In this document: positions 15,402-32,000 of the stretch, one piece after another
Layout: each line of letters opens with the position of its first letter
Numbering within the stretch: the stretch's first letter is position 1
Origin: Mycoplasma mobile 163K
GTDB taxonomy: Bacteria > Bacillota_I > Bacilli_A > Mycoplasmatales > Metamycoplasmataceae
Direction: 5' to 3'
DNA: 32,000 nucleotides
Assembly: GCF_000008365.1 (NCBI RefSeq)
Contig: NC_006908.1
Coordinates: 120,001-152,000 of the forward strand
The notes under the pieces: model-generated
What the model saw: only the letters and a program-made list of their open reading frames with translations
Told to the model about the DNA's origin: nothing
The model's database searches: none
Program-made: the position numbers and the translations under genes

Positions 15402-18400
15402 ATGGGTTTTAGTTTAAAAAAGAGTCTTATTATTGGACCAATTATTGCAGTAGGAGCTATTGCAATAGGAGTACCAGTAATTGTAGCAACAACTTTTAGA
15501 GCAAATTCAGAAGAATCAAGCACAATTTCAGTTGAAGAAGTAAAAAACGATAGGTTAATAAGCAATATAAATGCCTCATATGTAGGAAACGCTAGTGCTG
15601 TTACAACATCTAATTTAGTAATTAATAATTTTACTTTGAATAAATCAAAAAATCCAAGAATAAAATATGAAATAACAAAAATAGAATCTTCTTCATTAAA
15701 AAATTCTGCAATTGTTACATTTCAAGGATTTGTGGTAAATGATCCAAACTTTATTCCTGTTGTTTTTGTTTCAGAAGTAGGTGGCTTTTTATTTAGTGCT
15801 GAACAATTAAAAAATGATCTTAATTCTAGAATGATTGCTCCATCATTAAATTCTGCTGCTTTAAATAAAAAACCTTCAAAAATTACTTTAGAAGATTTGG
15901 TAAATCCAAATTTAAATCTTTTAAGTGCTTCGAATTTATTTAATTCTTTAACTGTTACTTTTTCTTATGAATTAGGAGAATTTAATGATAATTTAAGTCC
16001 TAATTATGGAAGAGACATTATTGTTAATTTTATTGTTAGTGGAATTAACAATACTTCATCTCAAGGTTCTTATAAAACAAAAATAGAAACAGGAATTGAA
16101 AACTTTATTAGCTCAGAAATTGTAAATAACAACATAACAGGAACAATTAATGGTTTAGATAATCAAGCGAGCAAGGCTATTTTGGTTTCCAAAAATAAAG
16201 CAAGCAATAGAGCACTTGAAATTTTATCCACTGATTACAATATTGAGAATTCATATATTTTATCTGTCAATTTAAATGGAAAAAATCATGACATTAAAGT
16301 GAATCAAAAAATTGGATCTGTAAAATCTGCAAATGACATAAATGGAGAATTATTTTTAGAAATAATAGTTAATTTAGATCTTTCTTCACTAGTAATTAAT
16401 GAAACTCCAGGACCTAGTAATTTTATTTTTAATTTTTCTCAATTAGAACAAGGATTTTTAAGTAACGACAAAATTGTTGATTCAACTAATGAAGCAATGA
16501 GTACTTTGAATATTTCAAACATAATAACTTCTAATGATATTTTGCTTCAAAATTCAAAAGATGTTTTATCTACAAATTGAAATGTAAATAGTTTTAGAAT
16601 CGATTCATCAAAAAATAGTTTTGTACAAAACTCAACTATTTTAGGTGCTAATGAATCTGTGAGATATAACTTAGTAATAAGTAAAGTAGATCCTATTTTA
16701 GGAACAAACTCTGCTAATTTAACTATTAGTGCAATTCCTTTAATTTCAACAACAACTAATAAAACAATTATTTTAGGAACAATTATTTTTGCTAGTCCGA
16801 TAGATTCTATTATAGTCGCCCAAGATACAATTGCTCTTGATGATTTGATTATTCAATCTATAATCCCTACTTTTCAAAACTCAACAAACTTAATTAGTTT
16901 AAATAGTCTACCTTCAGAATTATCAAATAATTTAAACACTACAAATTTTTCAAACCATTTTAATTTTCAAATTCCTTCAAATGCTCCAATAGGTACAACA
17001 TATAAAATTCTAAAAATAAATCAAACTAATGATTTTTTTGGCCAAATGGATTTAGAAGTGGAAATTTCTATTCCAAGATCTTTTTTAAGTAAAACATATG
17101 TTGTAAAAGTTTCAGGTTTTAATACAACACATAGAAAAACCTTAACTGCGTTTAATGAAATTAGAAATAATCCAGCAAACGCTAATTTATTTATTCCGAC
17201 TTTTACAAGTATAAGTTCTCAAAATAACACAAATGTTGATCAAGTTATACCTGCAAATTTAAATTTAAATAAAACTCTTCTAGACCAGTTTGCATTAATT
17301 GACCCAAGTGTTAGCCTTGAATTTGAAATTATAAGTAGAAATTCTCAGGAAGGAATAATCAGTGGAAATATTATATTAAGTGCATCTAATTTAAGAAATC
17401 CAAATACCCCAACTGAATTAAGAGGAGTGGTTAAATATAGTTTTTCTCTTGGAGGATTTTTATCAACAAATGCAATTAATATTGAGTTATTAGAAAATGC
17501 ATTTAATAATTTGCCAACAATTACTCTTAATAATAATGCTTTAAATTTAGTTAAGCTACCTGGTCTTATTACATCTAATGATTTTAATCCTATAACTTTA
17601 TCAAATAATGTTAGAGCAAGATATTTAACAGGGTTAAATAGTATTACAAATATTAATATAATTACAGGTTCATTAGATTTACAAGTAGAATTATCTGTTT
17701 CGAATGACTCAACTAATCCTAATTCTACTTCTAGATCTGTTTTAGTTCGTCCTATAACAGTAAGAAATTTACCTACTTTACAAAATTACATGAATCATTT
17801 GGCAACAATTGTAAAACCTGATTTGCTATTAAATAGTCAAAACAATACTTTATTATTAGCATCACAAATATCTGAAAATAATATATTTCCAGTAAATCCT
17901 GTTTTTCCTGGGACTACAAATTTAGTATTTAATTTAAACACAAATTTGATTAACTTTATAGAAAATGTTTTTACAAATATTCAATTTAAAATAAATAAAT
18001 TCACGCCAAATGATATTAATGGTTCAGCTGAAGTAGAAATAGAATTATTTGTAACAAGTCAAAATGTCCCAAGTTTAAACATGTCTGTAATTTCTTCTGT
18101 TTATACTATTAATTTGCTTCCTAATACTTTTAGTTCAAATAGAACTGTAATAAACACTGAAATGCAAACTTTGGCAAACATTATCATCAGTAGAAATCCA
18201 AATGATTTTATCTTATTTAATGGTCCAAAAATATCCACAAATCCTTCGCTTGTGAAAAATGAAGATTTATCAGTTAATTTATCAAGCTTAAGTTTTGGAG
18301 AATTTCCAAATTCTCAAGATGTAAGTTTTGATGCTCAAATAGTTTCGATAAATTCAGAAAAAGGAACTTTAATTGTCAATTTAAGAGGAACAAGAGCAAA

Positions 18401-18788
18401 TGAAAACTTTATTTCTAATGTTTCACTAGAACTTACAGAATTTCAAACTGATTCAAAAAGTGTTTTAGAGGCTATAAATTCACTAGAAAATACCATAATA
18501 ACAAATCCTCAATTAGTTTTTAATGGAAGAACTTCAACAGGAGCAATTCAAACAATGGAAAACACAACTGTAAATCAATTAAATGCCCAAAGTTTTTCAT
18601 TTGATTTTGAATCGAATAATCAACTTTCTAATTCTGGAACTATAAATCCTAAAAATCTAATAAGATATTTTATTGTAAATATTAATACGACACCAACATC
18701 TGGAACTGTTAGTGTTCAAATAAGATTAGAAAAAGGCAATACTGTAGAATTTAAAAATATCACAATTCAAGGATTTAAAACTAATTAA
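15402..18788 (+). CDS. Large signal-anchored surface protein, 1128 aa, built of ~10 divergent ~100-aa modules
   Basis: Track ORFs 15402..16580 and 16659..18788 are both in frame 3 and join through a TGA at 16578. A strong SD (AAAGGAGAAAT) precedes the ATG. The N-terminus MGFSLKKSLIIGPIIAVGAIAIGVPVIVATTF is hydrophobic with no lipobox Cys. Module-end motifs recur: VTFQGF, EVGGFL, LEQGFL, KVSGFN, SLGGFL and ITIQGFKTN*. No Cys was seen. Confidence 0.85.
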
Positions 18789-31400: not shown

Positions 31401-32000
31401 AATGTAACTCAGTGAGGAATTCCAGTTGAAAAAGCTTTAAGTTTTACTAAATTAACTAATGCAAATTCTCTGAGAACATCTAATTCATCTACTCTTGTAA
31501 GTAGTGATTTTAGTATTTCAGCAATTGAATCAGATGGTGTAGGAGGATACATTATTGGTGGAAATAGTCCAATTTTAATGCGTTTAGGTCTTGTTAATGG
31601 TTTTTTACAATTGATTTCATATGAAAGTTATGCAGCCGAATTTAATAATTTAATTGTAAATACTATTCACTCAGATAGACAAGGGATGTTTATTGTCTCA
31701 GGCCAAAATGGTTTAGGGGCAGCAACAATACAAATAAATAGATTACTAACAAGAGGACTAATTGATATTGATAATCCTTATGGACAAACATTTACAGGAA
31801 GACCAACCGTAGCTCAAATTACAAACTTTTGAGAATCTTATAAAAATATTACTTCTGTTAATACAATAAGCAATGGTTTAGGAGTTGTTACTTTACAAAG
31901 ACATCAAGCTTACTTATTAAATAGAAAAGCTATTAAAATTCCAAAAAATACTTCTCTTTCAATTACAGATATTTTGAGATTTAAAGGAACTATTCCAAGT
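28482..32000 (+). CDS. Large signal-anchored surface protein with beta-propeller-like repeats, >1172 aa (3' end runs off the window)
   Basis: Track ORFs 28482.., 30594.. and 31578.. are all in frame 3. I read the gaps 29130-30593 and 31416-31577 and they contain only TGA. The SD AAAAGGAAAG lies upstream. The N-terminus is MKIKNKKIILASVSTTVALTSGLTLGLY. Recurrent motifs are DRRGGYFIFGD, DNTGEFVYFAGEGQYVAKVRIATGEIVW, FAFGGNQASFVEINQATGEIV, DGNGGYYGITVSNTLVHLNNQGNQLSW and SDGVGGYIIGGNSPIL. Confidence 0.8.

Follow-up and report, generated by a model that had tools for sequence, protein, structure and literature searches.

The 32,000-nt stretch of the Mycoplasma mobile 163K genome examined here (contig NC_006908.1; the whole stretch is referred to as the window, and positions are numbered from its first letter) has a G+C content of ~25% and carries, towards its right-hand end, three genes on the same strand that are identified below as gli123, gli349 and gli521 of the gliding machinery. 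As described in an initial annotation made from the raw sequence, the genes comprise 1128, 3183 and more than 1172 codons, lie 89 and 52 nt apart, and are each preceded by a Shine-Dalgarno (SD)-like motif (AAGGAG, AGAGGT and AAAGGAAAG, respectively). The layout depends on the genetic code employed, in that all three genes appear split at TGA when translated with table 11 but are uninterrupted with table 4. Since 17 of the 19 tryptophan codons across gli123, gli349 and the partial gli521 are TGA, the assignment of UGA to tryptophan (genetic code 4) is confirmed. The open reading frame (ORF) map obtained with code 4 places the genes as follows:

15402..18788, + strand: gli123 (MMOB1020), 1128 aa
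18878..28429, + strand: gli349 (MMOB1030), 3183 aa
28482..32000, + strand: 5' quarter of gli521 (MMOB1040), codons 1-1172 of 4727; the gene extends past the window end

Identity of the three proteins

The three genes were identified, with a probability of about 98%, as gli123-gli349-gli521 (MMOB1020-1040) of M. mobile 163K, which encode the surface part of the gliding machinery. Exact-sequence look-up matched the first product to AAT27588.1/WP_011264622.1/BAC23067.1, annotated as 'gliding machinery surface structure protein Gli123 [M. mobile]', and the second to Gli349 (AAT27589.1/WP_011264623.1/BAB87773.1), while the third corresponds to residues 1-1172 of the 4727-aa protein AAT27590.1/WP_011264624.1/BAC23069.1, 'Gli521 [M. 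mobile]'. The records of the three proteins, and that of the neighbouring lipoprotein MvspA, lie on a 777,079-bp contig. An exhaustive HMMER search with residues 666-977 of the third protein against 1.84e9 representative proteins returned a single match, the 4727-aa Gli521, with 100% identity over the query. The decisive lead had come from NCBIfam, in which the C-terminal 626 residues of Gli349 matched the Gli349 model with E=1e-250. At full length, Gli349 scores 4228.2 bits against model NF045861 (glide_Gli349), which has a curated cutoff of 1750 bits, with residues 3-3174 of the protein aligned to positions 1-3169 of the 3169-position profile, i.e. end to end. The Gli521 part matches NF045860 (glide_Gli521) with 1526.6 bits and E=0, residues 2-1170 being aligned to positions 1-1189 of 4534 (only 1172 of 4727 residues lie in the window). 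No NCBIfam model matches Gli123.

Six published positional markers were also checked across Gli123, Gli349 and Gli521, and all six match. Edman degradation has shown that the 1128-aa Gli123 loses 18 N-terminal residues to give a mature N-terminus of AIAIG (bioRxiv 10.1101/2022.09.07.507039), in agreement with which residues 19-23 of the window protein are AIAIG, codon 19 being GCT (Ala). In Gli349, residue Q1257 is the site of the nonsense mutation in strain m13, the m26 site is given as '1228 RPTA 1229' and the m23 site is S2770 (PMC7052211); the window protein has Q1257, RPTA at 1225-1228 and S2770. Gli521 carries its markers P476 and S859 within the window part and, in AAT27590.1, also P1461 and E1670. 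The sequence cluster of Gli349 additionally includes BAB92076.1, a 'truncated adhesin protein' of 1256 aa, in keeping with the m13 nonsense mutation at Q1257. The published gene order is gli123-gli349-gli521-gli42 (PMC7052211), with which the order of the three genes on one strand agrees, the position of gli42 lying downstream of the window. Comparison with the M. mobile 163K cluster (MMOB1020-1050) thus revealed the same sequences, the same lengths (1128, 3183 and 4727 aa), the same order and the same six sites, and no difference, save that the window ends after gli521 codon 1172 and is without gli42.

Nothing was found that contradicts the identification, although several points limit it and are gathered here. 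The partial Gli521 score of 1526.6 bits does not reach the 2200-bit cutoff that applies to the entire protein, a shortfall that arises because ~75% of the protein falls outside the window. Only a quarter of gli521 lies within the window, which excludes gli42, and the functions ascribed to the genes rest on the literature, which itself describes the route by which force passes from the ATPase to Gli521 across the membrane as unknown (PMC11864180). Lastly, a promoter-like match at 11 of 12 positions in the gli123-gli349 gap makes one shared transcript less than certain.

The initial annotation stated that the cluster could not be equated with any characterised mycoplasma adhesin operon. That statement did not hold, since the cluster is a characterised one, with 100% identity to the Gli proteins. 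Orthology of all three products to characterised proteins, which had been listed as evidence that would count against the proposal made there, was found, again at 100% identity. The cluster is, therefore, already known, having been studied since the early 2000s. Word-index homology searches conducted with the Gli521 part, full-length Gli349 and the Gli521 hook returned either nothing or matches to BspA leucine-rich repeats (LRRs) at 2-3% query coverage; because even the query proteins themselves failed to appear, these negatives say nothing on novelty. A scan of genome contigs with Gli521 residues 1-1172, which gave no match, is equally uninformative in this respect.

Modular architecture of the Gli proteins

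The features distinguished within the three proteins are as follows:

15402..15455, + strand: Gli123 codons 1-18 (MGFSLKKSLIIGPIIAVG), absent from the mature protein (published Edman sequence Ala-Ile-Ala-Ile-Gly)
18195..18449, + strand: top-scoring PF04200 module of Gli123, residues 932-1016 (Pfam hmmscan)
18899..18967, + strand: Gli349 transmembrane anchor at the N-terminus, residues ~8-30 (LISGITATVVVASAVGIGVGTSF), the sole part of the protein where the Kyte-Doolittle value exceeds 1.8
20879..26860, + strand: Gli349 repeat array of Lipoprotein_17-type modules, residues 668-2661 (own seed hidden Markov model (HMM) and PF04200)
26987..27268, + strand: BspA-type LRR (PF13306, LRR_5), Gli349 residues 2704-2797 (Pfam, 42.9 bits)
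27038..28426, + strand: Gli349 'Foot', the C-terminal 463 residues 2721-3183 (published boundary and length, in agreement with the window protein)
28611..30626, + strand: Gli521 domain I ('oval'), residues 44-715 (limited proteolysis, PMC7052211)
31146..32000, + strand: start of Gli521 domain II ('rod'), residue 889 onward (PMC7052211); runs off the window end

The three proteins are entirely devoid of cysteine, as noted initially, with none among the 5483 residues of Gli123, Gli349 and Gli521 residues 1-1172. Approximately 10 would be expected at the cysteine frequency of the other window genes (0.19%), and with a probability of ~4e-5 for a count of zero the absence is statistically real. Avoidance of cysteine is general in exported proteins of bacteria that are without disulfide-forming machinery, with which the cysteine-free Gli proteins fit. 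Each protein has at its N-terminus, again as first described, a basic segment that leads into a hydrophobic stretch, and none has a lipobox; the invariant cysteine that should follow the signal h-region is missing, Gli123, Gli349 and full-length Gli521 being wholly without this residue.

The module of ~100 aa ending in G-F that Gli123 and Gli349 had been observed to share corresponds to Pfam family PF04200 (Lipoprotein_17; gathering score 22.4 bits), which scores 54.5 bits with five matched stretches in Gli123 and 66.2 bits in Gli349. Four lipoprotein-17 domains have been counted in Gli123 in published work, which also reports that the module is common to Gli123, Gli349 and the Mvsp lipoproteins (bioRxiv 10.1101/2022.09.07.507039). 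The Gli proteins carry a 'lipoprotein-associated' domain yet, being without the lipobox cysteine, are not lipoproteins. The published layout of Gli349 is a transmembrane segment, 18 repeats and the Foot, and the protein has been described as a ~50-nm 'leg' comprising two stiff arms and an extended flexible section built from ~18 repeats, and the C-terminal Foot (PMC6376172). An HMM built from our own seed, taken from the copies in Gli349 itself, detected, after iteration, 13 strong and 4 weaker repeat copies in Gli349, i.e. 17 at E<0.01; the repeat array forms the arms and the long flexible part of the leg. A methyltransferase-like ORF at 4594 was considered as a further carrier of the module and rejected, the strong match having appeared only after iteration, as a self-inclusion artefact of iterating the HMM on a tiny local set; the un-iterated model gives E ~1e-3 in this ORF. 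AlphaFold2 modelling of one Gli349 module, from an alignment of 15 paralogous copies from the window, gave a three-stranded sheet preceded by a helix and a loop, with a predicted local distance difference test (pLDDT) score of 71.8, and the fold has been described likewise for the domain (bioRxiv 10.1101/2022.09.07.507039). A Foldseek search with this model against the PDB returned no significant match (best E 0.24, TM 0.29). Tryptic boundaries published for recombinant Gli123 (rGli123) were also compared with the window protein: K404 and K564 fit exactly and R559 and R788 are off by one residue. These were given no weight, the fragments having been stated to correspond 'at least' to the ranges given (bioRxiv 10.1101/2022.09.07.507039).

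The same module is found in MvspA (AAT27584.1) of M. mobile 163K, encoded at 8047-9525 on the plus strand (RefSeq start 8077), which is a true lipoprotein with lipobox VVAC. In MvspA the Lipoprotein_17 domain occurs in four strong copies (162.8 bits), for which a four-copy DNA repeat family of 158-nt units (61-75% identical) codes. With its gene located upstream of gli123 at a distance of just 6 kb, the donor-type module is thus in the same neighbourhood as the gliding genes in which it is used again. It might accordingly be supposed that Gli123 and Gli349, both of which share PF04200 with these four copies in MvspA, are oversized variable surface antigens of the Mvsp type that serve in antigenic variation or immune evasion. 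One source does indeed assign both proteins the automatic name 'lipoprotein 17-related variable surface protein', and a common origin with the Mvsps has been proposed (bioRxiv 10.1101/2022.09.07.507039). The Mvsp lipoproteins of M. mobile resemble Gli123 and Gli349 in their PF04200 modules, in being surface-exposed and in having no cysteine other than that of the lipobox. They differ, however, in that the lipobox cysteine, missing from Gli123 and Gli349, is present, in that their repeats score far higher on Pfam and in having no LRR foot. Moreover, an MvspI-negative mutant glides normally, the Mvsps thus being without a gliding role (bioRxiv 10.1101/2022.09.07.507039), whereas Gli349 passes the curated Gli349 model (4228 bits against 1750) and the experimentally established roles of the Gli proteins are in gliding. 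Finally, gli349 and gli521 orthologues track the 16S tree in four species, unlike rapidly varying antigens (PMC7052211). A role as variable antigens is, on this evidence, extremely improbable, and identification as gliding proteins is retained.

The BspA-type LRR and the Trp-rich C-terminal domain that had been recognised in the second protein were both borne out. The former scores 42.9 bits with PF13306 (gathering score 27.7 bits), and sequence matches of the LRR region in the PDB are confined to BspA-like LRR proteins (4fd0, 4fdw, 4fs7, 4gt6 and 4h09). As to the latter, eight of the nine Trp residues of Gli349 fall within residues 2374-3183, with five in the last 130. The TCA codon of Ser2770 (27185-27187) lies inside the LRR. 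The Foot binds sialylated oligosaccharides, for which Ser2770 is essential, the S2770L substitution abolishing binding (PMC6376172, PMC7052211).

Published work distinguishes in Gli521 an oval formed by domain I (residues 44-715), the rod at 889-3035, the hook at 3244-4560 and, at the C-terminus, a transmembrane segment (PMC7052211). The codon for Pro476 (29907-29909) lies in domain I; substitution P476R enhances binding (PMC7052211), and S859 is likewise a known mutation site (PMC6935860, PMC7052211). In full-length Gli521 (AAT27590.1), the sole segment that exceeds 1.6 on the Kyte-Doolittle scale with a 19-residue window is located at ~4692-4721, beyond the window, and is followed by RRRKLKGK; Gli521 is thus anchored at its C-terminus. 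The description of all three proteins as signal-anchored consequently holds for Gli349 and, loosely, for Gli123, from which 18 residues are removed, but not for Gli521, which has its anchor at ~4692-4721 and of which mature domain I begins at residue 44 (PMC7052211).

The designation of the third protein as propeller-like could not be confirmed. The indications in its favour comprise three sub-threshold Pfam beta-propeller matches in residues 324-460 (Beta-prop_ACSF4, E 0.0086; EMC1_N, 0.014; PQQ_2, 0.055) and a GG[YF]-type motif, [SD]xxGG[YF]xI, which recurs eight times in residues 1-1172. A PDB sequence search with the Gli521 part gave no match even at E<=10, and AlphaFold2 modelling of domain I without an alignment yielded an unusable model (pLDDT 31.5). 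The presence of a PQQ/BamB-like beta-propeller in domain I (44-715) is therefore a tentative suggestion, and on balance a doubtful one.

Transcription of the cluster and neighbouring genes

The intergenic regions of the cluster are as follows:

15148..15401, no strand assigned: divergent AT-rich intergenic region gyrB/gli123, 254 nt (ORF map), the presumed promoter region of the cluster
18789..18877, + strand: gli123-gli349 gap, 89 nt, with SD AGAGGT and a sigma-70-like match
28430..28481, + strand: gli349-gli521 gap, 52 nt, with SD AAAGGAAAG

The gyrB gene starts at 15147 on the minus strand (NCBIfam TIGR01059, 937 bits). No terminator-like hairpin was found in the 89-nt or the 52-nt gap, and since the genes are also tightly spaced, gli123-gli349-gli521 would probably form one transcription unit. 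The top sigma-70-like match of the 17-kb region, TTGATA-16-TATAAT at 18821-18848 (+), is located ~30 nt upstream of gli349 and matches at 11 of 12 positions. It may represent an internal promoter, although it serves only as a lead. Promoter-like matches in the region are at chance level (105, as against 112.5 +/- 12 in shuffled sequence), and no promoter was therefore assigned, in the gyrB/gli123 region included.

Opposite gli123 and gli349, long antisense ORFs (100-516 codons with code 4) run near-continuously along the minus strand from 15338 to 28744 in one offset frame. These were rejected as genes and regarded as shadow ORFs, given the single offset frame and the ordinary codon usage of the sense genes (third-position G+C content ~9%; TTA as 61-74% of Leu codons). 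Their occurrence is interpreted here as being favoured by a strong bias in codon position together with a code that has just two stop codons.

Beyond gyrB lie an alanine dehydrogenase gene at 11977-13110 (-), with AlaDh_PNT N and C domains scoring 134 and 229 bits, and a gene for a lipoprotein 5'-nucleotidase of the UshA type at 9616-11862 (-). The lipobox cysteines that had been assigned to this protein (IIAC) and to MvspA (VVAC) were both verified, the lipobox cysteine being the sole one in each, such that the mature parts are cysteine-free. The alanine dehydrogenase and 5'-nucleotidase genes, downstream of gyrB, are ordinary housekeeping and nutrient-scavenging neighbours that are unrelated to gliding.

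Upstream of mvspA is a stretch of 1.2 kb with 17% G+C (6871-8046), unusually long for a non-coding region in a 777-kb genome, in which neither an ORF of more than 67 codons (code 4) nor a tRNA or an Rfam match occurs. It is preceded at 6415-6867 (-) by an ORF whose 150-aa product is a coiled-coil protein bearing a heptad-like ENRLENV/ENRLEKV repeat in tandem, for which the Pfam matches are only weak and to generic coiled-coil families. Further to the left, a direct repeat of ~0.72 kb (98-100% identical, at 2530-3250 and 5756-6476, spaced 3226 nt apart) duplicates the 3' third of a RecD2-type helicase gene (929-3133) together with ~100 nt downstream, and a 204-codon fragment ORF at 5745-6359 arises from this duplication of the helicase end. 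The insert of ~2.5 kb between the repeats contains ORFs for proteins of 162 aa (3815-4303) and 309 aa (4594-5523), the latter with an NPPFG motif, which is typical of N6-adenine DNA methyltransferases. The insert looks like a restriction-modification-type island that was inserted with duplication of the end of the target gene. At the left end of the window, beyond which it continues, is a seryl-tRNA synthetase-like gene (1-842, -); a 134-codon ORF at 472-876 (+) is probably not a gene, since it is entirely antisense to it.

The gliding machinery and comparable systems

The functions of the proteins, as established in M. mobile, permit the features described above to be placed within the published mechanism. 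Gli349 is required for gliding (PMC6376172, PMC6935860), Gli123 is the 'mount' on which Gli349 and Gli521 depend for their placement at the cell neck, and binding and gliding of the m12 mutant are restored by recombinant Gli123 (bioRxiv 10.1101/2022.09.07.507039). The role proposed for Gli521 is to turn the movements that chains of dimeric F1-like ATPase make inside the cell into a pull on Gli349 (PMC11864180), and gliding proceeds by catch, pull and release, in strokes of ~70 nm (PMC6935860). According to this scheme, Gli349 would be held in the membrane via its N-terminal helix and reach out some 50 nm through ~18 Lipoprotein_17-type modules, such that its 463-aa foot, composed of the LRR and the Trp-rich domain, could catch sialylated oligosaccharides on host or glass. 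Gli521, the 'crank', would pass movement to Gli349 from chains of the dimeric F1-like ATPase 'twin motors' inside the cell, while Gli123, composed largely of the same modules and trimmed by 18 residues, would position both proteins at the neck. Because Gli521 relays the ATPase movement to Gli349, the legs would repeat the catch-pull-release cycle, and the repeated ~70-nm leg cycle would drive the cell forward at up to ~4.5 um/s.

The mechanism bears directly on whether the cluster might instead encode a fibrillar adhesin or fibril, multi-component but static, in which a stalk protein with terminal binding domains and its accessory partners would serve attachment only and have no motor function. 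In build, Gli349 does resemble fibrillar adhesins, in that many ~100-aa modules in a long series link a membrane anchor to an LRR-containing binding domain at the tip. The names 'adhesion and gliding protein' and 'truncated adhesin protein' have, moreover, been given to it by one source and to its truncated mutant, respectively. Walled-bacteria fibrillar adhesins likewise have a long stalk of tandem domains and a distal binding domain, and giant BspA-like surface proteins have an LRR_5 segment homologous to that of Gli349, though over only ~90 residues (2-3% of Gli349). Unlike the adhesins of walled bacteria, however, the Gli proteins are without an LPXTG or wall anchor, having transmembrane helices in a wall-less cell; indeed, no LPx[TSA]G sorting signal was found in Gli123, Gli349 or Gli521 residues 1-1172. 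A further difference is that the Gli349 stalk is driven mechanically by ATPase through Gli521, because of which its binding is cyclic and directional. Against a static structure stand the sequence identity of the window proteins with Gli123, Gli349 and Gli521 of M. mobile, the coupling of that complex to an ATPase inside the cell, and the effects that mutants and inhibitory antibodies have on gliding speed and force besides binding (PMC6935860, PMC7052211, PMC11864180). Adhesion is one step within the catch-pull-release cycle, and the published gliding phenotypes refute attachment alone as a complete description, which leaves a purely static structure with next to no probability. The 'multi-component adhesin or fibril system' of the initial annotation was therefore correct in so far as the cluster encodes a surface complex with a modular stalk and a terminal ligand-binding domain, Gli349 being indeed an adhesin, but the complex is a force-transmitting gliding machine as opposed to a static one (PMC6935860, PMC11864180).

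Clusters of the same gene families are present in M. pulmonis (MYPU_2110-2160), where the order is largely kept, and in M. agassizii and M. testudineum; in these orthologous clusters, too, there are Lipoprotein_17 repeats, and the LRR is conserved together with a serine equivalent to S2770 (PMC7052211, bioRxiv 10.1101/2022.09.07.507039). The orthologues are nonetheless very divergent, with ~25% identity between Gli349 and MYPU2110 and a Foot that is poorly kept outside the LRR (PMC6376172). Searches with the window sequences (word-index, contig and HMMER scans) recovered no orthologue from any of these three species.

The locus is among the best studied in mycoplasma biology, its proteins having named functions, mutants, antibodies and shapes established by electron microscopy, and the case consequently serves as a calibration. 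Reading of the raw sequence arrived at the correct genetic code, boundaries, shared module, LRR and adhesin-like architecture, whereas it could reveal neither the prior characterisation nor that the genes encode a motor-driven machine as opposed to a passive adhesin. The possible propeller in Gli521 may be the sole part that is new relative to the literature examined; if present, it would be a docking platform in domain I for Gli349 or Gli123 in the transmission of force.

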